Source: a virus
Taxonomy: Duplodnaviria; Heunggongvirae; Uroviricota; Caudoviricetes
Length of the DNA stretch: 10,081 nucleotides
Direction: 5' to 3' (one strand)
Virus record (IMG/VR): IMGVR_UViG_2663763286_000006
Location: 1 to 10,081 of that record
This document shows positions 162 to 10,081 of the stretch, in pieces (position 1 is the stretch's first letter; the number at the start of each line of letters is the position of its first letter). The translations under genes and the position numbers were made by a program. The notes below the pieces were generated by a model that ran no database searches, was not told the origin of the DNA, and worked only from the letters and a program-made list of their open reading frames with translations.

Positions 162-680
162 GGCTGGCATATTTCCTGTTGCCTTCATGGCCTCCAAAAT
201 AACCAGAACGCCATCTCGCCCAACCACCTCAGCGATAACCTCGGTGTTGTCGCCAACAACATCGCAGAATGCCTGAACTGCCTTACGAGCCAGCTCATTC
301 TCCACTGCCAGCGCCGTGCGATTACCCTCCAGCTCTGCAATGCGCTGTTTTGCGGCATCCAGTTCAATCGACAATTTTTCCAACTGCTCTTGATGCTTCT
401 TGTATTCCTGATATGCGTGCCAAGACTGACCTTTGCGCACACTATCAGTGATATCAGTAATCTGTTCTGGTGTTAGCGTGGTCAGTGGCTGTGATGGGAA
501 AATAAGCACTTTCCCGGAATCCCAATCAAAACCAGCGTGAATTGACTGAACCTCAACTGAAGGTGTTGAACCAATGCTGCCAGGCGAATGAACAACGATC
601 GTTACATTCATATCGCGACGATGGCTGTGGTTGTTGGACAAAATACGATTCACCAACTCAGAAAATTTGGAAAATTTCAT
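159..680 (-). CDS. Prophage hypothetical protein with C-terminal coiled-coil (173 aa as read); 3' end probably truncated by the IS insertion
   Basis: ORF MKFSKFSELVNRIL… with a heptad-like segment (QEQLEKLSIELDAAKQRIAELEGNRTALAVENELARK). Its stop codon TGA (159-161) is the terminal TGA of the IS itself. The start overlaps the upstream gene stop in an ATGA arrangement. Confidence 0.5.
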   Translation of the reverse strand: MKFSKFSELVNRILSNNHSHRRDMNVTIVVHSPGSIGSTPSVEVQSIHAGFDWDSGKVLIFPSQPLTTLTPEQITDITDSVRKGQSWHAYQEYKKHQEQLEKLSIELDAAKQRIAELEGNRTALAVENELARKAVQAFCDVVGDNTEVIAEVVGRDGVLVILEAMKATGNMPA

Positions 681-967
681 GCTGATTCCCCTTTCTCTGC
701 TCTCTCCTGTCGGAACATCACTATCATCAGGTCGCCTTTTGTCGCTATCCTGGCTGTTGTACCTGGTTCAATGCGGCTAAGCTCAAATGCGTCATAGAAC
801 GCTTCTAATGCCTTCTGGCGTAGTTCCTGTTTGCGCCGTTTTTTCCACTGTTTTAGGAAAATGGAACCCAGCCATCGCCATGTACGGGACATGATGTAAA
901 GCCAACCGAGAAGTGCCAGACCGGTATTTAGGAGCGTATCGATCGTTATTGTCGTGTCGATATTCAC
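677..967 (-). CDS. Small putative membrane protein (96 aa, GTG start)
   Basis: A GTG at 967 overlaps the upstream stop (GTGA) and is preceded by AAGGAAG at about 6 nt. Hydrophobic segment LLNTGLALLGWLYIM followed by a basic stretch KQWKKRRKQ. The annotated ATG at 1000 has no Shine-Dalgarno sequence and would overlap the upstream gene by 36 nt. Confidence 0.45.
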   Translation of the reverse strand: MNIDTTITIDTLLNTGLALLGWLYIMSRTWRWLGSIFLKQWKKRRKQELRQKALEAFYDAFELSRIEPGTTARIATKGDLMIVMFRQERAEKGESA

Positions 968-1830
968 TGGCTGCTTCCTTTGCGAATCTGTTCCGCCCAT
1001 TCTTCAAGGGATTTCTCCGCATATTCACCAGACAGGCCATCAATCGGATGCGCTTCATTAGCCAACTCTTCTTTCGCTGACAAAATCATGCGTGTAACGT
1101 CGAAAACTTCACGCAAAGACTTATTGATAAATCCGTGATTGAACGCAGCAGCAAGACGGCTGGCGGTATAGTTAATCCCCTCGTTGCGTGCTTCCGCACG
1201 TACTTCAGCAAGGAAAGCATCGGTGGCTGGGGTTTCGACATTAGGTCGAAGCTCATAATCACAAACTCTTTCAATCCATGGTGATACTCTGTCGCATTTC
1301 CTCTTCTTGCGTTCACCGACCTTGGTTGCCTGCTGAATAATTACCCCCCAGCAAATGCTTTCGACCTCTTCGCTCCATCCATCGCAAGCATCACCTCTAT
1401 AGTCGTCAATTGCAGCCTCAGCAGCAGCGATAGCCTCCTCAGCAGTTTTGTGACACTCGAAACTAAATTCAGAGCCATATGAGAAATACATAGCCCCGGC
1501 CTTAAGCCCCGCATTCTCCGCCACCAGCGCCGCGAGATTAGTCTCAAGCTCTGCAATTCGACACATAGCATCAATATTTGTGTCCTCCAGGCGCTTAATT
1601 TCACCAAGCAGCTCCAGTGCAACCTTTGGGTTGAACGCGGCAACATAACGAGCGTTGTTCTCTGCATTTTTCTGTCCATCAAAGCCGGTCCATTTGATAA
1701 CGTCTTCACATCGTTCATCACCGGGCGTGTGCACCGCATAAGTACCAGTATCTGTCGAAATAAATGCGACCCATTCGTCTGGTGTTGCCTTTTCTGCCGC
1801 CTCACGCAGTACCTGATAGTCAATTGTCAT
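964..1830 (-). CDS. Ead/Ea22-like prophage protein (288 aa)
   Basis: N-terminus MTIDYQVLREAAEKATPDEW… and a central coiled-coil (LELLGEIKRLEDTNIDAMCRIAELETNLAALVAENAGLKA) resemble Ea22-like proteins of lambdoid early-left regions (from memory). Start chosen at the ATG that overlaps the upstream stop (ATGA), with AAGGA 8 nt upstream. Confidence 0.55.
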   Translation of the reverse strand: MTIDYQVLREAAEKATPDEWVAFISTDTGTYAVHTPGDERCEDVIKWTGFDGQKNAENNARYVAAFNPKVALELLGEIKRLEDTNIDAMCRIAELETNLAALVAENAGLKAGAMYFSYGSEFSFECHKTAEEAIAAAEAAIDDYRGDACDGWSEEVESICWGVIIQQATKVGERKKRKCDRVSPWIERVCDYELRPNVETPATDAFLAEVRAEARNEGINYTASRLAAAFNHGFINKSLREVFDVTRMILSAKEELANEAHPIDGLSGEYAEKSLEEWAEQIRKGSSQ

Positions 1831-2471
1831 TCTCGCCATCCTTCACAGTTGTAATCACTACAGCCTTCAAAATCATATGGGCTGTACTGCCAGGTTATTT
1901 TTCCGCAATGCGGACAATTCCAACGCACCTTCCCGCTTCGCGACTTCTTTCTTCTGTTTTGCTTTTTCAACCAGTCAGGCATGACCAAACCTGCGCCCTG
2001 AACCATTGTTCTGCGGTTAAAGTTATTGATATTGAACGTCCGGCGCTTTGCTGCATCAGCAATGGAAAATGGCAACCAAACTATTCCTGGTTCGTTTTTG
2101 TTGGCGACGCTAAAGATGGTCGCTTTACTGAAGTCATCTGTTGGCAATCCACCGTGTTGAAGCCAGTAAACATCGTTGCCGTTCCAGCTACCTTTTTTGT
2201 AGGCCACATACGCAGTGCAATCTGACTCAATCAGGCTTTCTGTAGGGATGTACTGGCAATCAACGTGCCACACAGCCATTGCATCCACGCTATCAGCGCA
2301 AACAGGCTGATCGATATCTCGTCCACAATTCCAGGCTTTTTGGGCTGCTTCCAGCGTGTAAACATGAGCGCGATCGATATCAGAACTGTAACCATTGCCG
2401 TTATGGCAATGGAATGAGGCGTTATTACCCACAGTTTCACGCAAGCACATCATGTAAAAGCGGTTATTCAC
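1827..2471 (-). CDS. Hypothetical protein with C-terminal Cys-rich zinc-ribbon-like motif (…WNCPHCGKITWQYSPYDFEGCSDYNCEGW)
   Basis: 214-codon ORF with a GTG start at 2471 preceded by GGGAGG at 6 nt; the stop overlaps the next start (ATGA). Function not recognised. Confidence 0.5.
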   Translation of the reverse strand: MNNRFYMMCLRETVGNNASFHCHNGNGYSSDIDRAHVYTLEAAQKAWNCGRDIDQPVCADSVDAMAVWHVDCQYIPTESLIESDCTAYVAYKKGSWNGNDVYWLQHGGLPTDDFSKATIFSVANKNEPGIVWLPFSIADAAKRRTFNINNFNRRTMVQGAGLVMPDWLKKQNRRKKSRSGKVRWNCPHCGKITWQYSPYDFEGCSDYNCEGWRE

Positions 2472-2679
2472 TGGATGCCTCCCAGCAAATTTGTCTTATA
2501 TAAGAACTGTTAACGCGCTTTACTTTCCCGTCGAACTCCAGTTTCTTTAGACGACGCAAAACGTATGCCGTTTTGAGTGTGCGATATTTATCCCTAAGCC
2601 AGTTGGTCACGACGTAAGTCATACAGCGCCCGTGTTCTTCCAACACCCGAACTATTTCTTCGTCGGTTGGCTTGCTCAT
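2464..2679 (-). CDS. Small basic protein (71 aa), possible DNA-binding protein
   Basis: ATG at 2679 preceded by AAGGAG at 7 nt; overlaps the upstream stop (ATGA). Basic and helix-rich (RRLKKLEFDGKVKR). A winged-helix fold is only a guess. Confidence 0.5.
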   Translation of the reverse strand: MSKPTDEEIVRVLEEHGRCMTYVVTNWLRDKYRTLKTAYVLRRLKKLEFDGKVKRVNSSYIRQICWEASSE

Positions 2680-2897
2680 TTTGTCGCTCCTTCAGCTTTC
2701 TCTACTTTCGCTGCCATGATTTCCAGCTTTTGTGCTGCCGATGCCGCTAACCTGTGAAATTCTTCATCTGTTTCAACTGGAATTGGTACAAACCTGACAC
2801 CAATTTGAGCAAGGCTATGCGCCATTTCGAGACTTGCTCTTAACTCTGCTGGGGATGCTTTATTCAGGCCGACTTCCTCACAAATAACTGATTGCAT
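2676..2897 (-). CDS. Hypothetical small protein (73 aa)
   Basis: ORF MQSVICEEVGLNKASPAELRASLEMAHSLAQIGVRFVPIPV…; sits 10 nt downstream of the preceding stop and is co-directional with its neighbours. Confidence 0.45.
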   Translation of the reverse strand: MQSVICEEVGLNKASPAELRASLEMAHSLAQIGVRFVPIPVETDEEFHRLAASAAQKLEIMAAKVEKAEGATK

Positions 2898-2906
2898 ACG
2901 CTCGCC

Positions 2907-3632
2907 CTACTGAATACGCTCAAACTCGATTACCCAAACCCAGGGATTAGCACTCCAGCTTTCTTCGCCGTAGATGGATTCCCACAGGCGCTGGAACGCA
3001 ACCTTGGCCATTGCGAAATCCCCCTTGGGAGTAAGGAATGTTCCCGGGTGATCAGGAAGCAAACTTCCAGCAGGCGGAACGCCCTCATCCCTTGCATCGC
3101 ATTCGCTGATATCGTTCAACCGCTCAACGCGCACGTTGGTAATTTCCACCAGGATGCGTGATGCCCATCGCGGCATGTGAATTGATGGACGCCACCCACC
3201 ATCAAACTTTTCATTCACAGTGTGAGGTTTCCAGTCGGCATCATCGGGTATCGACCATAAACCGTAATCACCAGGCTTTTGCTCACAACTGGCCCGATAA
3301 ATCCTTGCTGCGTTCTTCTCATCGCCACGACAAAGGTTGTCGTTCCAGTCCACACTGCAACCATCTTCATTGCCTAATATCGCCCATGTTTCACGAACCC
3401 AAATTCGATCGCCGACGATACCAAAGGGGCAATTGAAAACACTGCTTACACCATCAGCCCCGTACCACTGAAAACCTGCACCAATTTTTCTAACCATCAC
3501 CGGTGCTTCTGGACCAACTTCCGCAGGCTGATTTTTCATTATCCGCCGCGTCTGCGTTTTCCTTCCTTCGAGGATGGCCCGGACCATCTCATCGTTGAAA
3601 ATCATGCCGCGCTCTTTCACTTCGCCTTTCAT
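2907..3632 (-). CDS. Hypothetical phage protein, possibly ASCH/PUA-like fold (GRKTQTRR motif)
   Basis: Long ORF with an N-terminal …MIFNDEMVRAILEGRKTQTRRI… segment resembling the GxKxxExR-type ASCH signature (weak, from memory). Start placed at the third in-frame ATG (3632), which has AGGGGGA immediately upstream and lies 10 nt after the stop of the small peptide ORF. ATGs at 3668, 3650 and 3605 are alternatives. Confidence 0.5.
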   Translation of the reverse strand: MKGEVKERGMIFNDEMVRAILEGRKTQTRRIMKNQPAEVGPEAPVMVRKIGAGFQWYGADGVSSVFNCPFGIVGDRIWVRETWAILGNEDGCSVDWNDNLCRGDEKNAARIYRASCEQKPGDYGLWSIPDDADWKPHTVNEKFDGGWRPSIHMPRWASRILVEITNVRVERLNDISECDARDEGVPPAGSLLPDHPGTFLTPKGDFAMAKVAFQRLWESIYGEESWSANPWVWVIEFERIQ

Positions 3633-3642
3633 GCATCCCCCT

Positions 3643-3729
3643 TTACCCATGCGCGACGATGCCGCCAAAAGTGATAGAGAACAGCCAGAAATAGATCGCG
3701 GCCATAATGATTTTGAATGCCGTGTTCAT
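3643..3729 (-). CDS. Unannotated small hydrophobic peptide, 28 aa (MNTAFKIIMAAIYFWLFSITFGGIVAHG)
   Basis: Not in the supplied ORF track (too short). ATG at 3729 preceded by AGGAG with an 8-nt spacer. The peptide has a single predicted transmembrane-like core, and its stop lies 10 nt upstream of the next gene start. Confidence 0.35.
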   Translation of the reverse strand: MNTAFKIIMAAIYFWLFSITFGGIVAHG

Positions 3730-3757
3730 ATTTTCAGCTCCTGTGATTGATTGGATA

Positions 3758-3788
3758 CATGCCGCGCCTTGCGGCATGTTTTTATTTT
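3758..3788 (+). terminator. Intrinsic terminator-like hairpin oriented for the + strand (CATGCCGC-gcctt-GCGGCATG followed by TTTTTATTTT)
   Basis: 8-bp GC-rich stem, 5-nt loop and a T-rich tract on the + strand only. It is convergent with the minus-strand operon and lies immediately upstream of the small peptide gene's RBS. Confidence 0.5.
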
Positions 3789-3815
3789 CACTTCCCCTGT
3801 CTTAAAAATCAATAT

Positions 3816-3828
3816 TTATTAGAGCAAT
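3816..3828 (-). repeat. 13-mer junction motif ATTGCTCTAATAA (minus-strand orientation), copy A
   Basis: Exact copy; it overlaps the tandem stop codons (TAA TAA) of the HAD phosphatase gene. Confidence 0.6.
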
Positions 3829-4334
3829 TGTTGTTGATAAAGAAGCGCATTTTCATACTCCCTGACCATTAATGTAAGTACGCCATGACTCCTGAACACA
3901 CGCGCCACTTCAATCTTATCTTCCAGCGCGAACGCAATTTTACTTAGACCAATTTTCTTCAGGAGATCAATCTTTGCTGGACCGTCATTTCTGTCATCGG
4001 TGGCAGGACGCATAGATAGCAAAGGCTCAGCCCCGTTTGTTACGTACTTCCGCAGCCAGGCTCGTGTTTTATCCCTTGCGATCTCACAGCGCCCGGTTAC
4101 AAACCAGACCGTGTAAACGTTAAATAACTGGCGCACCATATCAATAACTGGAGTGATGGGAGCATCAGTGTCACAGGCAAGGTTAAACTCGTTCCAGTGC
4201 TCTGTTAATGCACCTTTGCCAGGTGGTGGAAGTAAATGCAGCCTGTCTTCCGTTGCCTCTGATATCGTCCCATCAATATCTACTATGACGATGTACGGAC
4301 GTTCCTGGTGTGCGTGTTTATTGAAAATACTCAA
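3819..4334 (-). CDS. HAD-superfamily phosphatase (polynucleotide-kinase 3'-phosphatase-like domain)
   Basis: HAD motif I IVIVDIDGT (DxDGT) near the N-terminus, motif II-like VWFVTGR, and a downstream acidic motif ATDDRND. TTG start at 4334 preceded by AGGAGG. Confidence 0.6.
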   Translation of the reverse strand: MSIFNKHAHQERPYIVIVDIDGTISEATEDRLHLLPPPGKGALTEHWNEFNLACDTDAPITPVIDMVRQLFNVYTVWFVTGRCEIARDKTRAWLRKYVTNGAEPLLSMRPATDDRNDGPAKIDLLKKIGLSKIAFALEDKIEVARVFRSHGVLTLMVREYENALLYQQQLL

Positions 4335-4352
4335 ATGCCCTCCTCATTGGAC

Positions 4353-4386
4353 GAAAAAAATGCTGGTGGGCGCACTCCACCAGCAT
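4353..4386 (-). terminator. Rho-independent terminator (minus strand): 10-bp stem ATGCTGGTGG/CCACCAGCAT, 7-nt loop, then U7
   Basis: Perfect 10-bp inverted repeat at 4360-4386 followed on the minus strand by TTTTTTT (4353-4359); located between the stop of the 420-aa gene (4407) and the HAD gene start (4334). Confidence 0.65.
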
Positions 4387-4406
4387 TAAAAGTGACACTG
4401 TAACTA

Positions 4407-5669
4407 TCAGCGAACGTAAATAGTGCCGCCGTTCTCTTTTTCCCATGCATCGCTACGTGCATAGCAAACATCGAGAAGTCTTCTTGCCGCAGTTTCCTCT
4501 AAACCCAATTCGACAACCAACTGCTCATGACGGCGGGTAACCACATCAAACAGGGTATGCAGCCCTTTAGTTGCCAGATCATCAATGAATTCCGGTTCGA
4601 ACGGCAGCTCTGCCTCTGCCAACATAACCTCTTGCGCCCACTCAACTCGACGGACCAGTTCCGGGCGGCGGCTTTCCATCTCTTTACAGATCAATTCATG
4701 GAAGAACTCTACCCAACCTTCCGGCTGGAACTCGCGGAAAATGGCCAACGGCTGGAAGTTTGGCATCAACCATTCGTTGATCCGGATATCAATGGCATAG
4801 CCCATGTCGCAGCAGAACTGATAAGCAAAGTCCAGCTTAGAAACGATATAAGGACGCTCGTTATTGAACTCTTTAGGCGATGAGATCCCATAAGCCAGGA
4901 GGCGCGGGAAGAAGGAGATTTGCCCTAACGTCGGATGAAGTTTTCTTGCAGGGAAACGGCGCTCAGTAATGCCATACATTTCCTTCTTGAGCGTCGCAAA
5001 TTTGGCATTCTCATTAACCAGCGCGGTAACCTCTGCTTTTTTATTAGCAAATGCCACGCGCGCTTCGCTTGCATCTTTAATAGTTTTTTTGAGCTGTTGG
5101 TTAAGGTCGGCGACCTGCTTACGCAGTTCCTGTCGCTCGCTTTTAGCTTTGTTATAGCGTTTCTCAAGGTTAAAAGGATCAAGTTTCATGATCTCTTTAT
5201 ATTGAGATTTTAGCGTTGAAATCTGTGAGTTCCGCAGTTCAACCATCGCGGTCATTTCATTGAGTTTTGTTTCCAGCTCAATGCTTATACGTTCGGCATT
5301 ATCAGCACGCTGGTTGGCGTCATGCGTCGCATCGTCGATCGCGTCCTGTTGCTGGCGTTTCAAATGTTCAATTTGCAGCTGAAGCTCTTCAATTTCTTTA
5401 CCCTTCAGACCGAGATCCAACTGCATATTTTCAGCTGCATCTACCAGGGAGTTATGGCTATCAGCTTCTGCGTTATAAACATCAATAAGCTGTGCGTGAA
5501 GCATCTCCGCTGACTGAACCGCATTATCAAAAAAACGCGCTGTGAGGTCATCACAACTAACGCGGCGTTGCGCGGCCCGGATGTTCTGGATAATGGCCGG
5601 GATACCGGCATTCAGGACGTCAGGGATAGATACATTTTCGATTGATTGGTTTTGTGCTGAAGTGCTCAT
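4407..5669 (-). CDS. Large hypothetical protein (420 aa): N-terminal coiled-coil (about residues 60-230), C-terminal globular domain of unknown function
   Basis: Long ORF with strong heptad periodicity and K/E/Q richness (…LQLQIEHLKRQQQDAIDD…ELRKQVADLNQQLKK…), then a Trp/Phe/Cys-containing C-terminal domain. Its start lies 1 nt after the upstream stop (TGAAATG). Confidence 0.6.
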   Translation of the reverse strand: MSTSAQNQSIENVSIPDVLNAGIPAIIQNIRAAQRRVSCDDLTARFFDNAVQSAEMLHAQLIDVYNAEADSHNSLVDAAENMQLDLGLKGKEIEELQLQIEHLKRQQQDAIDDATHDANQRADNAERISIELETKLNEMTAMVELRNSQISTLKSQYKEIMKLDPFNLEKRYNKAKSERQELRKQVADLNQQLKKTIKDASEARVAFANKKAEVTALVNENAKFATLKKEMYGITERRFPARKLHPTLGQISFFPRLLAYGISSPKEFNNERPYIVSKLDFAYQFCCDMGYAIDIRINEWLMPNFQPLAIFREFQPEGWVEFFHELICKEMESRRPELVRRVEWAQEVMLAEAELPFEPEFIDDLATKGLHTLFDVVTRRHEQLVVELGLEETAARRLLDVCYARSDAWEKENGGTIYVR

Positions 5670-5670
5670 T

Positions 5671-5889
5671 TCAAAGTTCCGTATTAGCTTGTGCTTCGGT
5701 CATTTTTCCTAAGTATGAAGGAGGAAGGACTACGCAATTTGTATCCAGTCCCTCACCTATGGCAGCCTGTAAAATTCTGGCTAAGGTGAGTCTCTTGTTG
5801 CGATACCTGGTGATGACATGCCTGATACCGCCGGTCGGCGTAACAAAGGCGATCAGCCAGTAGTGATATTTCCGTCGGAATGGCCACAT
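5671..5889 (-). CDS. Hypothetical small protein (72 aa)
   Basis: ATG at 5889 preceded by AAGGTG at 4 nt; the stop directly abuts the start of the 420-aa gene (coupled pair). Confidence 0.45.
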   Translation of the reverse strand: MWPFRRKYHYWLIAFVTPTGGIRHVITRYRNKRLTLARILQAAIGEGLDTNCVVLPPSYLGKMTEAQANTEL

Positions 5890-5903
5890 AGTGCACCTTG
5901 TAG

Positions 5904-5916
5904 ATTGCTCTAATAA
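5904..5916 (+). repeat. 13-mer junction motif ATTGCTCTAATAA (+ orientation), copy B
   Basis: Exact copy; forms a perfect 13-bp inverted repeat with copy C, enclosing the terminator hairpin. Confidence 0.6.
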
Positions 5917-5940
5917 AAAACGTGATGAGTGTACATCACG
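5915..5940 (-). terminator. Rho-independent terminator (minus strand): stem CGTGATG/CATCACG, 6-nt loop, then U6
   Basis: 7-bp inverted repeat at 5921-5940 followed on the minus strand by TTTTTT (5915-5920); lies between the GT-A-like gene stop (5971) and the 72-aa gene start (5889). Confidence 0.55.
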
Positions 5941-5956
5941 CTTTAAAAATATGGAA

Positions 5957-5969
5957 TTATTAGAGCAAT
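5957..5969 (-). repeat. 13-mer junction motif ATTGCTCTAATAA (minus-strand orientation), copy C
   Basis: Exact copy starting 1 nt after the stop codon of the 5971..6672 gene. Confidence 0.6.
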
Positions 5970-5970
5970 A

Positions 5971-6672
5971 TTATTCTGATTCTCGCTCAAAAAATGAGCT
6001 GACAAGGGGAAGCCAATCCTCTGACACTTCGCGAGGTCGCGGTTTGCCGTGGAAAAAGATTATTCGGCAGTCTTTTGGTAATGCCCCATTCCCCCTGGAG
6101 TAACGCGCGCTCGCATATTTTGAACCAGGTTCCACAACATCGGCCTTGTAACTTACAAACCATCCTGGATACAGATCCTGAAATGCTGGTGTATCATCGC
6201 CCATAACCTTCCGTAAGAACCCCTGATCACCCCAGCACTCAGTAGTGACACAACGAGAAATCCAACCTTCCGGATCTTGCCAGAATGAACTCCAGATATG
6301 CGCTTTAACACTATTTGGTATCCACAGGGCACCGCTGCCACGATATTGTGGATGGTAAAAATCCCTAAGCATGGTGAAGCTGGTTGGTGGATGCTCTAGG
6401 ATTGGGCGTATATCACCGGCAATAACCGTGTCCAAATCCAGATAGAACAGATCATCGGTTATATCCGGTCGGAACAACTCGATTTTCGCCCACCAGCCAC
6501 GGCACTTTTGCCACTGGTTGATCAATGGGACAACTTTGACGCCAGGTACATGTAAACGCTTCAGGTCTGTCAGGCAAATAATTTCATAGCCTTTTGGCAG
6601 TTGATTAACCAGCCACTGCACATCGGAAGCGTTATAGTCACCACCAGAGCGAAAAACTAAAGCAATCTTCAT
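5971..6672 (-). CDS. Hypothetical protein, possibly GT-A-fold nucleotide-sugar transferase-like (DxD-like LDLD motif)
   Basis: 233-aa ORF whose start overlaps the phosphatase stop (ATGA). It contains …[27 protein letters not shown]…, reminiscent of the sugar-binding/DxD region of GT-A glycosyltransferases. This is a weak, memory-based resemblance. Confidence 0.45.
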
Positions 6673-7346
6673 GCTGCACCATCACCTTTCACTTTCATCA
6701 ATGTCAGGTTTCCGCAAAATACGGCACCAGTGTCGATATACTGCTGATTCCAGAATGTCTTCGGGCTTTTCACCGGAGTGTGACCAAAGATAAAACGATC
6801 TGCGCCCGAAATTTCGCCACCAATATCATCCATCGAATCACTGATACGCTCGCGCGCCCAGACAACGTTGAAAAGCGGCACCTCCTTACCGAATTGGTAT
6901 TCATTATCCGGATAGTCGGCATGGGCTATAACGATAGTTTCTTGCCCGGTGTTCAACTCAATGATATAGGGCAGACGCTTTACCAGCTCCACCAGCGCCC
7001 AGGCTAATATTTCCTGATCAGTGTCCAGCATGAAGAACCATTGTCCGCCATTCATTAGCCAGTTATTCACGTTGCCATCTGGACTTAACGCATCAATCAT
7101 CAGCCGCTCATGGTTCCCCATCACTGCCCTGAACCAGGGCATCTGCAATAGTTCCAGACATTCGACATTTTCAGTACCGCGATCGATAAGGTCGCCGACC
7201 GATATCAGTAAATCCTGCGCCGGGTCAAAATCCACACGATGGAGTTCGGACATCAGTCTGGTGTAGCAACCATGCAGATCACCAACAACCCAGACATTCC
7301 TGTATTTGGTACCGTCGATACGGTGATAAATTGTGGGTGCCATCAT
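6669..7346 (-). CDS. Serine/threonine protein phosphatase, calcineurin-like metallophosphatase (phage lambda PPase / PrpA-PrpB-like)
   Basis: Canonical signature GDLHG … GDLIDRG … GNHE (DXH-GDXXDRG-GNHE). Length and N-terminus ([28 protein letters not shown]) align with lambda PPase as I recall it. Start chosen at the ATG overlapping the upstream stop (ATGA) rather than the ORF-track ATG at 7361. Confidence 0.85.
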
Positions 7347-7957
7347 GTATTCTTCAGCCATTCTTTAAGAGTCATCTGCGGAATACCTCCCATTTTCCCG
7401 CATGAAACAACGTCAATCCGTTCACGCGCAGACTGGAATAACAAAGGCAGGTGACTTAGATTTTTTGGCGTGCCGCCGGAGTGAACGCGTGGTTCTTGTG
7501 TAGCGTCAACGCCCACCAGGGCGACATGTTTGAATCCGATATGGAAAGCCAGGTTCAGAGCGCCATATGCACTATTGCCGCTGGCAATTTCATTCTCATC
7601 TTCGCAAAGTCCGAAATGTGCGGACCAGCGCCACGCCCACCACTCGGGAGAATGCTCCATGCCACGTTCAGCCACACGACGGAAGCACAGAACGCCGTCT
7701 CTGACTTCACGTTCTTTAACATCGGGTAGTGCCATGCAATAACAAACACCACGGCGACGGCGGCCACGACCAACGCGCCGCATATTGTCTGGCGATGGAT
7801 CAAGTGTGAAAAAATAAGAAGCGCGGTTCAGCCAGTCGATGGCCCCATTGACCGCTATAATCGGCACTCCGCGCGGCGCAACAAAGTTTGCGGCGCTTGG
7901 GCCACTGCCGACGATAATAACGCGATCACTGCCTCTAAATTTATTCTTGGGAAACAT
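7343..7957 (-). CDS. Hypothetical protein with N-terminal GSGPS nucleotide-binding-like motif (Cst-II/GT42-like or MptE/DUF115-like fold?), paralog 1
   Basis: Contains [10 protein letters not shown]…IIAVNG and later [16 protein letters not shown], which resemble the IIAGNGPSL and GYKEIYLSGID motifs of Campylobacter Cst-II-type sialyltransferases and DUF115 proteins (from memory). Clearly paralogous to the next gene upstream. Confidence 0.55.
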
Positions 7958-8484
7958 TGAATTGCACTGCTCCTACTTGCATTCAAAATATGTAAATCTG
8001 CGTGTTTTTTGCGGGTATCCAGGAACTGCTGTTGCCATTTTGAAATAGAAACCTGCGTTGGATTCCGTAGGGCTTGAGGGTGCGCGCCATGCCAATGAAG
8101 GCCGTTTTGCAGAGAACAGTCATAGCCGACTAATACCACTACTTCAGCCCCTGATTCAGCAGCCAGACTGATAGCCTGCGCGCCGCTATTTACCCCTTCC
8201 GCCGGTCCACAATATCGCCTGTACTCCAACGAAAATGATTTCGCCGCCGCCAGGTTGGCTGTCACTTTGCGGAATCTCCCTCCCGGTATGGTGGATCCGT
8301 ATTGCTTCCACCATGACAAATCACCGGCGTATAAGGCATAAATGTCATCGAACATCTGCCAGGAATTGTTAACCGCGATGATTGAACAGCCAGTTTTTTC
8401 TATAGCAGCACAGTCCTCACGAGTGAGTGACGGACCGCTACCGACACAAAAAACAGTCCTAGTCGCCCTGCGTGGTATGTTCAT
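7855..8484 (-). CDS. Hypothetical protein with GSGPS motif, paralog 2 (start placed at internal ATG by homology with paralog 1)
   Basis: Contains TVFCVGSGPS…IIAVNN and VVVLVGYDCS, matching paralog 1 motif for motif. Its C-terminal 34 codons overlap the start of paralog 1 by 103 nt. The ORF-track start at 8517 is an alternative. Confidence 0.5.
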   Translation of the reverse strand: MNIPRRATRTVFCVGSGPSLTREDCAAIEKTGCSIIAVNNSWQMFDDIYALYAGDLSWWKQYGSTIPGGRFRKVTANLAAAKSFSLEYRRYCGPAEGVNSGAQAISLAAESGAEVVVLVGYDCSLQNGLHWHGAHPQALRNPTQVSISKWQQQFLDTRKKHADLHILNASRSSAIQCFPRINLEAVIALLSSAVAQAPQTLLRRAECRL

Positions 8485-8680
8485 TCTCAGCTGCAAATTC
8501 AGCCTCCAGGCGAGCATTCATTTCAGCGATTACAGGGTCCACTACAGCATCTGTTTCCTGTTCATTACGCGGCATGATCGATGCCAGCGATTCATAATTA
8601 GCCTTGGATGACACGATTATTCTCCCGATGTTAATGTGCGCTATATCAAATGGCTCATATGTACTAATTAATTTATTATT

Positions 8681-9259
8681 TTAAGCAACATACAACCACT
8701 TGTCGCCGTTCAATACATGCTCAATAGCCTCACCCTTTTTAAGGCTTATGTATTCCAGGATGGCGGTTATCGCTTGTTCTGCACCATACGCAAGAACGAC
8801 GTAGTAACCTTCCTCTCTAAGCCTGCGCATCCAGGCGATCTGCTCTTTCGTCGGGGCTTTACCATTTGGTTCTTTAAGCTCAATTCGCATGCCGTGATAA
8901 ATACCGCATGCTTTATCGAGACTCATGTCCGGATAACCTTTTTTCTGCCCTTCAGCCTTCATTTTCCCGGCGGTTGCTTTTGAACGTTTCCATCCGTTAG
9001 GCGTTGCATGCAACAGCTCATAGATGTCAGGGTGCTTGCGTTCGAAGTAATCAAAAATGAAAACCTGCTCGAAGTGCTCGCAATTTCCGTCGCGCAGGTC
9101 TGGGTTCTTTGCCAGTGCTGCAAGTGCCTTCGCATGTGGAGAAACTTCTTTTACCGGCGCAAGCGATAAGAATGGATCCTTTTTGGTTTTTGGCCTGGAC
9201 CGCCCCTTATTTCGACGCTCACTAAAAGCCTGAAACTCTTCCTCAGTAAAGCGCAACAT
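8681..9259 (-). CDS. VRR-NUC domain (PD-(D/E)xK-type) nuclease-like protein
   Basis: C-terminal half has GYPDM … IELKEPNGKAPTKEQIAWMRRLREEGYYVVLAYG, matching the VRR-NUC pattern (PD … ExK … Q … G-hydrophobic). ATG start at 9259 lies 2 nt after the upstream stop. Confidence 0.6.
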   Translation of the reverse strand: MLRFTEEEFQAFSERRNKGRSRPKTKKDPFLSLAPVKEVSPHAKALAALAKNPDLRDGNCEHFEQVFIFDYFERKHPDIYELLHATPNGWKRSKATAGKMKAEGQKKGYPDMSLDKACGIYHGMRIELKEPNGKAPTKEQIAWMRRLREEGYYVVLAYGAEQAITAILEYISLKKGEAIEHVLNGDKWLYVA

Positions 9260-9261
9260 AA

Positions 9262-9507
9262 TCAGTCAAATCCTGCCGGTCGCATGCCATATTTACGCTG
9301 TTTTGCGGCCTGCTCTTCCCTGTGCCATTGCGCACATTCAGCGTCACAATTAATGCCTGATTCAATCGATTCATTGCAGTAACGACACTTCCCTGTAAAT
9401 ACCTGGCTCACGACCTGTGCCTGCTTTCTGATGTTATCGATGGCCATGTCTTTGAGAGCTTCTAACTGATTCATGCTCAGCTCTGCATCATCAACACGTT
9501 CTGCCAA
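9262..9507 (-). CDS. TraR/DksA-family C4 zinc-finger protein (lambda Orf73-like), TTG start
   Basis: CxxC…(17)…CxxxC arrangement (CRYCNESIESGINCDAEC) in a roughly 80-aa protein with an N-terminal helical segment. TTG at 9507 is preceded by GAGGAAA at 5 nt; an internal ATG 11 codons in is an alternative start. Confidence 0.5.
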   Translation of the reverse strand: MAERVDDAELSMNQLEALKDMAIDNIRKQAQVVSQVFTGKCRYCNESIESGINCDAECAQWHREEQAAKQRKYGMRPAGFD

Positions 9508-9564
9508 TTTTGTTTCCTCGTGAAGAACCTACTTAAGGGCAGAATGATACATTTCACATTCAAA

Positions 9565-9577
9565 ATTGCACTAATAA
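9565..9577 (+). repeat. Variant copy of the 13-mer motif (ATTGCACTAATAA, 1 mismatch), + orientation
   Basis: 12 of 13 identity to the motif at 5904-5916, located in the AT-rich region upstream of the first gene of the minus-strand gene array. Confidence 0.4.
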
Positions 9578-9700
9578 TTTTCTTTTATTGAGTTAAATAT
9601 TCAACAAATGACTAGCGGTAGAATCACCATCATCTATTTCTGGCAGGCTGACTATGGCTACATCAATCACTACAACCCAAAGCACCCGGCAATATCCTCT

Positions 9701-9725
9701 TGAACCGCCCCGGAAATCCTGGAGA
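9701..9725. repeat. IS left terminal inverted repeat (TGAACCGCCCCGGAAATCCTGGAGA)
   Basis: Inverted match to 137-161. Confidence 0.8.
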
Positions 9726-9754
9726 CTAAACTCCCTGAGAAAGAGGTAAACAGG

Positions 9755-10081
9755 ATGACTAAAAATACTCGTTTTTCCCCCGAGGTCCGTCAACGGGCAG
9801 TTCGTATGGTTCTGGAAAGTCAGGGCGAATATGACTCACAATGGGCGGCAATTTGTTCCATTGCCCCAAAGATTGGCTGTACACCAGAGACTCTGCGTGT
9901 GTGGGTTCGTCAGCATGAGCGGGATACCGGGAGTGGTGATGGTGGACTCACCACCGCTGAACGTCAGCGTCTGAAAGAGCTGGAACGTGAAAATCGTGAA
10001 CTGCGCCGCAGTAACGATATCCTTCGCCAGGCTTCCGCTTATTTTGCGAAGGCGGAGTTCGACCGCCTCTGGAAAAAATGA
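9755..10081 (+). CDS. IS3-family transposase OrfA (108 aa; helix-turn-helix and leucine-zipper region)
   Basis: [57 protein letters not shown]… followed by a leucine-zipper-like [30 protein letters not shown]. Ends in an A-rich stretch (GGAAAAAATGA) where the programmed -1 frameshift into orfB is expected in this family. Confidence 0.85.

Follow-up and report, generated by a model that had tools for sequence, protein, structure and literature searches.

Two conserved intrinsic terminators in a P1-type phage gene array probably close separately promoted C1-operator units

The window (the whole stretch of DNA analysed, 10,081 nt) carries a minus-strand gene array of P1 type. Homology to phage P1 is limited by positions 2937 (pmgT side) and 9700 (gene 26 side). 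Within these limits the window is 98.4% identical in nucleotide sequence to the pmgL-pmgT region of P1 over 6.8 kb, its genes standing in the same order, and positions 162-9700 are 98-99% identical to E. coli P1-like plasmids of about 95 kb. Judged by this likeness, the array is the pmgL-pmgT region of phage P1, which has already been mapped and is well studied. Two IS1203/IS629-like copies flank the 9.5-kb P1-type phage-plasmid piece (pmgL to pmgT plus accessory genes). The IS on the gene 26 side starts at 9701 and breaks gene 26 47 bp in; beyond pmgT, Ea22-like, DUF4752 and further accessory genes take the place of the P1 genes, an arrangement shared with many P1-like plasmids. The IS junction of the window was common to none of the complete E. 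coli genomes searched. The genes for the C1 repressor (c1) and the Lpa activator (lpa) are not within the window; in a replicon lacking c1, the promoters of the array would be expected to be always active. An earlier reading of the DNA from its letters (the sequence-only reading) had correctly placed IS sequence upstream beyond 9700, but the native promoter, which it took to be lost, is not missing: the pmgL control region at 9508-9653 is present.

P1 features were placed on the window base by base from the GenBank annotation (P1, AF234172; P7, AF503408). Both records give a C1 operator at every unit boundary of the array, and AF234172 alone also annotates predicted sigma-70 promoters (PpmgL, PpmgN, PpmgR and P1/P2pmgT) at the boundaries. 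By the two records the array divides into at least four C1-controlled units, at Op82, Op83, Op86a/b and Op88. The control elements and units are as follows.

9508-9653: divergent control region of pmgL and gene 26 in the P1 annotation, containing Op82, P1pmgL, P2pmgL and LPpmgL.
9606-9614 (-22 box) and 9596-9601 (-10): late promoter LPpmgL, identical to P1.
9577-9582 (-10): predicted promoter P2pmgL, identical to P1.
9565..9581, plus strand: C1 operator Op82 (O26), pattern match with 2 mismatches, identical to P1.
9544-9549 (-10): predicted promoter P1pmgL, identical to P1.
8681..9507, minus strand: first unit, pmgL (9262-9507) and pmgM (8681-9259), from the ORFs and the P1 annotation.
8708-8713 (-35) and 8687-8692 (-10): predicted promoter PpmgN of the P1 annotation.
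8658..8674, plus strand: C1 operator Op83 (Oppp) of the P1/P7 annotation, preceding pmgN-pmgO-pmgP-ppp-pmgQ.
5971..8614, minus strand: second unit, pmgN, pmgO, pmgP, ppp and pmgQ (the "hdm operon" in P7).
5953..5969, minus strand: C1 operator Op86a (OpmgRa), including the PpmgR -35 TTGCTC (5963-5968).
5940-5945: predicted PpmgR -10, TAAAGC in the window and TAAAAC in P1.
5904..5920, plus strand: C1 operator Op86b (OpmgRb), in inverse orientation to Op86a and with an A-rich end that complements the T tract of T1.
4407..5889, minus strand: third unit, pmgR (5671-5889) and pmgS (4407-5669) (the "sht operon" in P7).
3812..3828, minus strand: C1 operator Op88 (OpmgT), overlapping the end of pap.
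3822-3827 (-35) and 3799-3804 (-10): predicted promoter P2pmgT of the P1 annotation.
3807-3812 (-35) and 3784-3789 (-10): predicted promoter P1pmgT of the P1 annotation.
2907..3632, minus strand: pmgT homologue within the fourth unit, with an ASCH-domain annotation in related plasmids.

An operator pattern search allowing up to 3 mismatches returned four matches in the window (0.03 expected), at the positions of the P1/P7 annotation. Op83 gave no match at this threshold and fits the consensus weakly. The 17-bp asymmetric C1 operators (ATTGCTCTAATAAATTT) overlap promoters where units start. PpmgR and P1/P2pmgT are predictions with weak -10 hexamers; that of PpmgR reads TGAAGC in Cronobacter phage JK004. 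In the third unit, the pmgR stop and the pmgS start are separated by 1 nt (TGAAATG). P1 needs pmgR for plaques, and its deletion leaves heads and tails unjoined (PMC9024508); in a P1 CRISPRi screen the pmgR knockdown was non-essential (PMC10695390), so CRISPRi polarity was unusable as a test of pmgR dependence on upstream transcription. Classification of PmgS as similar to the RNA polymerase alpha C-terminal domain was discarded: it derived from the way a 20%-identical match was annotated, and Pfam and PDB sequence searches returned nothing significant.

The hairpins at the unit borders and the two small genes next to them are as follows.

5915..5940, minus strand: terminator T1, closing the pmgN-pmgQ unit (stem 5940-5934/5927-5921, loop 5933-5928, T6 at 5920-5915).
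4354..4387, minus strand: terminator T2, after pmgS (stem 4387-4377/4369-4359, loop 4376-4370, seven T at 4360-4354).
3819..4334, minus strand: pap, 3'-phosphatase of the polynucleotide kinase-phosphatase type (Pfam HAD_PNKP, E = 1.3e-11).
3757..3779, minus strand: stem-loop ACAUGCCGC/GCGGCAUGU, 4 nt past the P1pmgT -10 hexamer.
3643..3729, minus strand: small ORF, by translation 28 aa (MNTAFKIIMAAIYFWLFSITFGGIVAHG), first gene of the pmgT unit, unannotated in the P1 record.

To count as a strict terminator, a site needed a mismatch-free stem of 7 bp or longer in which three or more pairs were G-C, then a loop of 3-8 nt and T6. Exactly two sites in the window fitted, T1 and T2, both on the gene (minus) strand. 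Dinucleotide-preserving shuffles (n = 300) averaged 0.003 strict sites, and none of them contained two. A looser terminator scan found 18 sites where 9.8 +/- 3.4 were expected; it missed T1 because it runs the stem into the T run. At T1 and T2 alike, a G+C-rich stem-loop with a U tract immediately behind it on the gene strand lies after a stop codon, as in intrinsic terminators. Relatives were collected by a PmgS scan of genome contigs, which gave only two near-identical loci, and by tblastn with PmgS against plasmids and phages. Since the latter added no diverged lineages beyond D6-type Salmonella plasmids and Cronobacter phage JK004, covariation is based on three lineages only. Both hairpins are kept with compensatory changes in these relatives, whose PmgS is about 69% identical. 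As far as fold, position and conservation can tell, T1 and T2 are real, conserved minus-strand intrinsic terminators. The sequence-only reading had proposed minus-strand terminators at 5915-5940 and 4353-4386; both are borne out, and T2 is refined to 4354-4387.

T1 has the stem CGTGATG/CATCACG with a 6-nt loop and lies 30 nt past the pmgQ stop codon. Its predicted fold has -13.4 kcal/mol (z = -4.3), an energy that counts four added flanking pairs (three A-U, one G-U). Two of the seven stem pairs are changed on both sides in the alignment, where 95.7% of cells are paired; among the three lineages these exchanges run from G-C to A-U and from A-U to G-C. T1 is located inside the pmgR promoter-operator, at a C1 unit boundary, and the 65-nt module of Op86a, hairpin, T6 and Op86b is constant in length and layout in the P1-type, Salmonella D6-type and Cronobacter JK004 lineages. 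The module would read in the order Op86a with the -35, 17 bp, -10, hairpin, and T tract doubling as Op86b. The predicted PpmgR -10 abuts the T1 stem, and PpmgR transcripts would begin at about 5932-5934, at the end of the 5' arm. Transcripts with this start would leave out the 5' arm and thus could not form the T1 hairpin. Transcripts arriving from upstream would fold it and stop, and pmgR transcripts would escape.

T2 consists of an 11-bp stem (4387-4359) with a G+C-rich core of 9 bp (4385-4361) and a 7-nt loop, 19 nt past the pmgS stop codon; its fold has -18.1 kcal/mol (z = -3.0). Across 81 matched junction sequences, of which nearly all are P1-type, the stem hardly varies, while the loop and T-run length do. 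In Cronobacter phage JK004, T2 shows one compensatory and one wobble change and is followed by a T8 run; the TTG start and its Shine-Dalgarno sequence are retained. The D6-type lineage is without pap and has a hairpin and U6 directly past pmgS, followed by Op88, so the terminator belongs to the end of pmgRS. In the window, the TTG start of pap lies 8 nt past the Shine-Dalgarno sequence GAGGAGGG and 19 nt past the last T of T2. No pap promoter is annotated in P1, no sigma-70 match was found near T2 by scan or manual reading, and an exact search for the late-promoter -22 box plus -10 gave no match in the whole window. By annotation and scans, pap is the only gene of the array behind a terminator without a visible promoter. 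With no recognisable promoter of its own, it must be reached through T2.

The hairpin at 3757-3779 marks the start of the pmgT unit. The range given in the sequence-only reading begins at this hairpin (3758), but the T run here is on the plus strand only and the gene strand lacks the layout of an intrinsic terminator. The terminator look of the plus strand arises because the T run complements the A-rich -10 and discriminator region of the promoter, and this T run is absent in the D6-type and JK004 lineages. Both lineages have a hairpin in the same place with different covarying stems, each 7 nt past a -10-like hexamer. In the window the hairpin starts 0-2 nt from the start site predicted by the P1pmgT -10, a geometry alike in the three lineages. 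Most likely it is a stem-loop at the extreme 5' end of the pmgT-operon mRNA made from the predicted promoter, and in this position it probably stabilises that mRNA. The following 28-aa ORF has a GGAG Shine-Dalgarno sequence and a hydrophobic N-terminus conserved in loci L004 and L007. A type I toxin-antitoxin system, composed of the small hydrophobic ORF and a plus-strand terminator at 3757-3779, was considered and set aside; the A-rich promoter region accounts for the T run.

Published RNA-seq of P1vir infection (PMC8201110, Table S1) was used for comparison; it reports gene-level log fold changes against 0 min, not coverage. At 10 min the values are 6.9-7.4 for pmgO-pmgQ (pmgQ 7.05), 9.02 for pmgR, 9.99 for pmgS, 8.45 for pap and 9.72 for pmgT (PMC8201110). 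At this level RNA goes up across T1 (at least 4-fold) and across Op88. The sequence-only reading had suggested RNA steps as a check; at T1 the published RNA rises instead of falling. Pap belongs to the early class, and its RNA accumulates behind T2, the terminators lying between co-oriented genes (PMC8201110). T2 looks strong (11-bp stem, U7), yet at 10 min pap RNA is just 1.5 log2 below pmgS. With adjustment for length (507 vs 1263 nt), the two RNAs are about equal at 10 min and pap is higher at 30 min. The gap between pap and pmgS narrows by about 1.1-1.5 log2 units from 10 to 30 min in both host strains, at which time most P1 genes reach a log fold change of about 10-12 and values may be compressed (PMC8201110).

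With a probability of about 0.8, the array would be a chain of at least four separately promoted C1-operator units, with T1 and T2 ending units and pap reached through T2. Every unit would open with a 17-bp C1 operator and a sigma-70 promoter, and the first unit would add an Lpa-dependent late promoter. T2 would end the pmgR-pmgS unit, and pap would be fed by those PpmgR transcripts that get past T2; by default this read-through is taken to be passive leakage. The gene-level fold changes suggest more read-through at T2 than simple leakiness leads one to expect, which counts against the leakage view.

The sequence-only reading had favoured a single operon dependent on antitermination of the lambda N type, with internal promoters or read-through as a fallback. 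In the single-operon form, the whole array would be transcribed from one upstream promoter, and an N/Q-type antiterminator acting from a nut-like site would override the terminators. Two real intrinsic terminators between co-oriented genes fit this model. It can also draw on the P1 literature: the passage on antitermination in a 2023 paper (PMC10695390), citing the P1 genome paper and a 1988 ref-attenuator study, names "strong indications" without direct evidence. A P1 antiterminator has been suspected since 1988-2004 and is not known to have been demonstrated. Against a single promoter stand three internal boundaries that carry C1 operators and predicted promoters of the P1 record, at 8658-8713, 5940-5969 and 3784-3828, and RNA that is at least 4-fold higher past T1 than ahead of it at 10 min. 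Although the upstream promoter region is retained, the gene strand of the window contained no exact boxA and no ops element, and none of the Rfam families searched on that strand reached the gathering score. Matches to boxA with one mismatch were scattered over the gene strand (14 vs 7.8 +/- 2.8 expected), and the sole near boxA upstream of pmgL, at 9533-9541 with one mismatch, is within chance. As the sequence-only reading had noted, the window holds no antiterminator; a homologue of N or Q is also absent from the annotated 15-kb stretch of P1. P1 is reported to have 45 transcriptional units, and its late expression to be driven by an activator, Lpa at 11 late promoters, and not by an antiterminator (PMC10695390). 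A single antiterminated operon is thus very improbable. The fallback holds: predicted promoters would serve pmgR-pmgS and the pmgT unit, and pap would be expressed by read-through of T2. The idea of antitermination would survive for T2 and pap only.

At T2, and perhaps at other terminators of the array, termination resistance conferred on early or late transcription complexes by a P1 or host factor, on which pap would depend, is unlikely as judged here, but several data point to it: a canonical, conserved terminator precedes the promoter-less pap by 19 nt, the length-adjusted RNA of pap is close to that of pmgS, and the gap between them shrinks late in both host strains. Ordinary terminators are often leaky, gene-level fold changes are crude and possibly compressed at 30 min, and this analysis identified no candidate factor or recruitment site. 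An unrecognised pap promoter starting inside the T2 hairpin, so that T2 would stop upstream transcripts only, is quite unlikely. It would parallel the arrangement proposed for PpmgR at T1 and agree with the relatively higher pap RNA late in infection, and the conserved motif GTTACNNTGTCAC just 5' of T2 holds two GTNAC cores like those of the late-promoter -22 box (taken as AAGTNACTT from a comparison of four P1 late promoters). This motif is however kept in the D6-type lineage, which is without pap; no -10-like hexamer stands at the correct spacing, the candidates TAATGC and TTTAAT are not conserved in JK004, the exact search of the window for -22 box and -10 was empty, and P1 annotates no promoter here. 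Both hairpins could also work as DNA, as protein-binding palindromes or recombination boundaries of mosaic modules. T1 between two inverted C1 operators does form a larger palindrome, and the presence or absence of pap falls exactly between T2 and Op88. Such a role in place of RNA termination is hardly credible, as the T tract of both hairpins is on the gene strand only, directly past a stop codon, and compensatory changes keep the pairing and not the sequence. The G-U variants found also count against a DNA palindrome, because wobble pairs preserve an RNA helix only.

The chain of separately promoted units corrects the notion that intrinsic terminators in a co-directional phage array by themselves imply antitermination; in P1 such terminators would delimit short operons, each under repression of its own. 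For P1 specialists, T1 offers a compact module in which a terminator would be flanked by the next promoter's -10 and, downstream, by an operator doubling as its U tract. T2 with pap would be a clean test site for any antitermination activity in P1. Because T2 is canonical and conserved, pap is promoter-less and pap RNA is similar to pmgS RNA, there is a small chance that P1-type phages may make transcription complexes termination-resistant, with T2 as an assayable target of the suspected antiterminator. As speculation, the C1 operators, which read UUGCUCUAAUAA on the gene strand, might be regarded as boxA-like, with a hairpin after each.

Genes, operators and predicted promoters of the window match the pmgL-pmgT region of P1 and P7 (in P7, the hdm, sht and hea operons). 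T2 is exactly that of P1; at T1 a single base is different, and it falls in the predicted -10. The P1 context is lost here, as the segment is cut out between two IS1203/IS629-like copies. In the P1 record, the annotation of this 15-kb stretch includes promoters and operators but no terminators.

The array resembles the pL and pR operons of lambda with their tL and tR terminators in that early genes of a temperate phage, all read in one direction, are separated by intrinsic terminators, and ppp is a NinI homologue according to the P1 record. Unlike lambda, the P1 array has repressor-controlled promoters past its terminators, and no nut (boxA/boxB) site was seen in it.

The E. coli rpsU-dnaG-rpoD operon has an internal partial terminator, T1, between rpsU and dnaG. 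Like partial terminators of this type, T2 of the P1 array stands directly ahead of a promoter-less gene with a weak start (TTG in pap). By this likeness, read-through would set a lower level downstream, whereas the published gene-level RNA shows little drop across T2. The leader of E. coli ompA is a 5'-terminal stem-loop that stabilises mRNA. The hairpin of the pmgT unit is similar to stabilisers of this kind in its 5'-terminal position, although its start is only predicted here; it differs from them in that, in the P1-type lineage, the opposite strand also resembles a terminator.

The stretch 162-9700 matched E. coli plasmids of ~95 kb with 98-99% identity, and these are P1-type phage-plasmids by annotation (terminase, late promoter-activating protein Lpa, phd/doc, humD, dnaB homologue, tail genes). 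Bacteriophage P1 itself matched 2937-9700 with 98.4% identity. The following genes were assigned from open reading frames and the P1 annotation:

9262-9507, minus strand, pmgL
8681-9259, minus strand, pmgM
8459-8614, minus strand, pmgN
7855-8517, minus strand, pmgO
7343-7957, minus strand, pmgP
6669-7361, minus strand, ppp
5971-6672, minus strand, pmgQ
5671-5889, minus strand, pmgR
4407-5669, minus strand, pmgS
3819-4334, minus strand, pap
2907-3632, minus strand, pmgT

An IS3-family element of the IS1203/IS629 type was found at both ends of the window in direct orientation, with the 3' end of orfB and an inverted repeat (143-161) on the left (1-161), and an inverted repeat and the start of orfA on the right (9701-10081). 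The phage is probably defective, because the right-hand copy cuts P1 gene 26 (baseplate) at 9701, 47 bp into the gene. The two copies bracket a 9.5-kb P1-like segment in the manner of a composite transposon; the IS/P1 junction was absent from all complete E. coli genomes in the collection searched. Downstream of pmgT (162-2936), lambdoid-type accessory genes (Ea22-like, DUF4752, DUF1382 and others) stand in place of P1 pmgU, pmgV and upfM-O; they are common to many P1-like plasmids and partly to P7.

The sequence-only reading had regarded the native promoter as no longer visible, with IS sequence in place of the upstream region. This is wrong: the window contains an intact control region for pmgL (9508-9653), and the elements annotated in it (the C1-repressor operator Op82, a pair of predicted sigma-70 promoters and the late promoter LPpmgL) are identical to P1. 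Further C1-repressor operators are annotated inside the array in the records of P1 (AF234172) and P7 (AF503408), together with promoters predicted in the P1 record:

ahead of pmgN, Op83 and PpmgN (record annotation)
between pmgQ and pmgR, Op86a and Op86b with PpmgR ('controls expression of pmgR and pmgS' in the record; 'sht operon' in P7)
after pap, Op88 with P1pmgT and P2pmgT (record annotation; 'hea operon' in P7)

Searching the window with the operator consensus recovered Op82, Op86a, Op86b and Op88, with 0.03 matches expected by chance. P1 is described as comprising 45 transcriptional units, its early genes being controlled by C1 and its late genes by the activator Lpa, which acts on 11 late promoters (PMC10695390). 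The array is best read as a chain of operons. In P1, TAAAAC is the predicted -10 hexamer of PpmgR and P2pmgT alike; the window carries variants with one G each, TAAAGC (PpmgR, 5941) and TAAGAC (P2pmgT, 3801); most matched IMG/VR contigs have TAAAAC at PpmgR.

Terminators were scanned with strict settings (perfect stem of 7 bp or more, including 3 or more G-C pairs, loop of 3-8 nt, then T6). The only matches in the window, both on the gene strand, were the two hairpins proposed earlier, T1 after pmgQ (5915-5940) and T2 after pmgS (4354-4387). Such sites averaged 0.003 over 300 dinucleotide shuffles, and no shuffle contained two. The two hairpins are real, yet they lie in a well-annotated part of phage P1.

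T1 consists of the stem CGTGATG/CATCACG (5940-5921) with a 6-nt loop (tacact) and T6 (5920-5915); its fold of -13.4 kcal/mol (z = -4.3) also takes in four further flanking pairs, three of them A-U and one G-U. It is located between Op86a and Op86b. On the gene strand the module reads ATTGCTCTAATAATTCC (Op86a, with the -35 TTGCTC), a spacer ending in the -10, the hairpin, and TTTTTTATTAGAGCAAT, which is the complement of Op86b and doubles as the T tract of T1. The final C of the -10 hexamer TAAAGC (5945-5940) is the first stem base. A start ~7 nt past this predicted -10 (5932-5934) would yield RNA without the 5' arm of T1, so PpmgR transcripts should escape the terminator, and transcripts arriving from pmgQ would end there. 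Length (65 nt) and layout of the module are shared by P1-type contigs, D6-type Salmonella plasmids and Cronobacter phage JK004 (PmgS identity 68.6% and 69.3% for the latter two). In the D6 type the stem reads CATGGTG/CACCATG, and in JK004 CATGGTG/CGCCATG. Both partners differ in two of the seven pairs, and pairing is kept in 95.7% of cells. Operator invariance is uninformative in this comparison, as the search pattern already prescribed the operators.

RNA values during P1vir infection were taken as voom-limma log fold changes versus 0 min (PMC8201110 Table S1). In wild type at 10 min they were 7.39 for pmgO, 6.99 for pmgP, 6.95 for ppp and 7.05 for pmgQ, followed by 9.02 for pmgR, 9.99 for pmgS, 8.45 for pap and 9.72 for pmgT; true late genes (e.g. 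26, 25 and 7) reached 3.4-4.4 (PMC8201110). As expected for a new promoter, RNA increases across T1, the opposite of a terminator within a single operon. The gene pap belongs to the early class. The 0-min baseline was probably near zero, as is stated for a later study of the same group, so that fold changes scale with read counts and hence gene length. After length correction (pap 507 nt, pmgS 1263 nt), pap roughly matched pmgS at 10 min and exceeded it at 30 min (uncorrected 11.23 versus 11.70; PMC8201110); therefore pap is not silent.

T2 lies 19 nt past the stop codon of pmgS. Its 11-bp stem (4387-4359) closes a loop of 7 nt, its T run counts seven (4360-4354), and it folds with -18.1 kcal/mol (z = -3.0). 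Among 81 matched junction sequences, taken from fetched loci and nearly all P1-type, the stem was almost invariant, the loop took several forms (among them AGTGCGC, AGTGCTC and AGTGCGTC) and the T run was 6 to 8 long. JK004 retains the hairpin as GCTGATGGG/CCCATCGGC, which differs by one compensatory and one wobble change, along with a run of eight T, the Shine-Dalgarno motif and the TTG start codon. In the D6-type plasmids, which lack pap, a weaker hairpin with U6 comes directly after pmgS, and Op88 begins 14 nt further on. As this pap-less type retains a hairpin, T2 marks the end of the pmgR-pmgS unit, with pap filling the slot up to the next operator. The P1-type and JK004 lineages have pap. 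Its presence or absence (3819-4387 versus 5263-5330 in the D6-type locus L004) falls exactly between this terminator and Op88, and pap therefore behaves as an insertable accessory gene. Its product is a polynucleotide kinase-phosphatase-type phosphatase (Pfam HAD_PNKP, E = 1.3e-11). The pap stop in P1 and JK004 is a TAA overlapping the first base of Op88; the window reads CAA (3828-3830, minus strand), which lengthens pap by three codons, up to a TAA within the operator (171 versus 168 aa).

No obvious RNA drop is seen at T2, and these gene-level values are compatible with leakage, active antitermination or a hidden promoter. A hidden pap promoter is quite improbable: none is annotated in P1 or recognisable upstream of T2, and downstream there is no room, because the Shine-Dalgarno sequence of pap (GAGGAGGG) and its TTG start codon both lie at most 19 nt beyond the last T. 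Active read-through into pap is unlikely, if slightly less so. Passive leakage past T2 is the default assumption for pap. All three lineages, the pap-less one among them, share a conserved motif right after the pmgS stop (4391-4405, minus strand), GTTACAGTGTCAC (GTTACGTTGTCAC in JK004); it has two GTNAC cores resembling the -22 box of P1 late promoters and no matching -10.

The range given in the sequence-only reading begins at a third hairpin (3757-3779), which has its T run on the plus strand only. Its likeness to a plus-strand terminator in the P1-type sequence arises because the promoter region is A-rich and its complement reads as a T run; neither of the other lineages shows it. A hairpin occupies the same place downstream of Op88 in all three lineages, with differing, covarying stems:

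P1 type, ACATGCCGC/GCGGCATGT
D6 type, GGCCAC/GTGGCC
JK004, GGCCGC/GCGGCC

Each stem lies 4-7 nt past a -10-like hexamer (GAAAAT, AAGAAT, AATAAT), and after it come a conserved CAATCAATCA, the Shine-Dalgarno sequence GGAGC and a short ORF with a hydrophobic product. Such an arrangement would suit a stem-loop placed at the very 5' terminus of the mRNA. The ORF (3643-3729, minus strand; L004 5431-5571; L007 of JK004 6424-6603; GGAG Shine-Dalgarno) is the first gene after Op88, has 28 aa in the window and 46 aa in the Salmonella D6-type plasmid, and is unannotated in AF234172. Its N-terminus is conserved in three lineages, and it probably encodes a genuine small membrane protein.

The sequence-only reading had made expression of the whole array dependent on lambda-N-type antitermination. 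Internal operators and predicted promoters and the RNA increase across T1 speak against this, and its fallback of internal promoters and read-through was correct. No exact boxA was found on the gene strand of the window, and neither an ops element nor an Rfam family in the window, which leaves the proposal of a lambda-style system for the entire array unsupported. As an idea, antitermination is not foreign to P1; PMC10695390 speaks of 'strong indications' for it alongside a lack of direct evidence. Read from upstream on the gene strand, the C1 operators at 3812-3828 and 5953-5969 give a boxA-like UUGCUCUAAUAA, each followed by a hairpin. The boxA sequences for comparison are UGCUCUUUAACAA in rrn and CGCUCUUA in lambda, and the likeness of the transcribed C1 operators to them, seen by pattern search, is most likely a coincidence.
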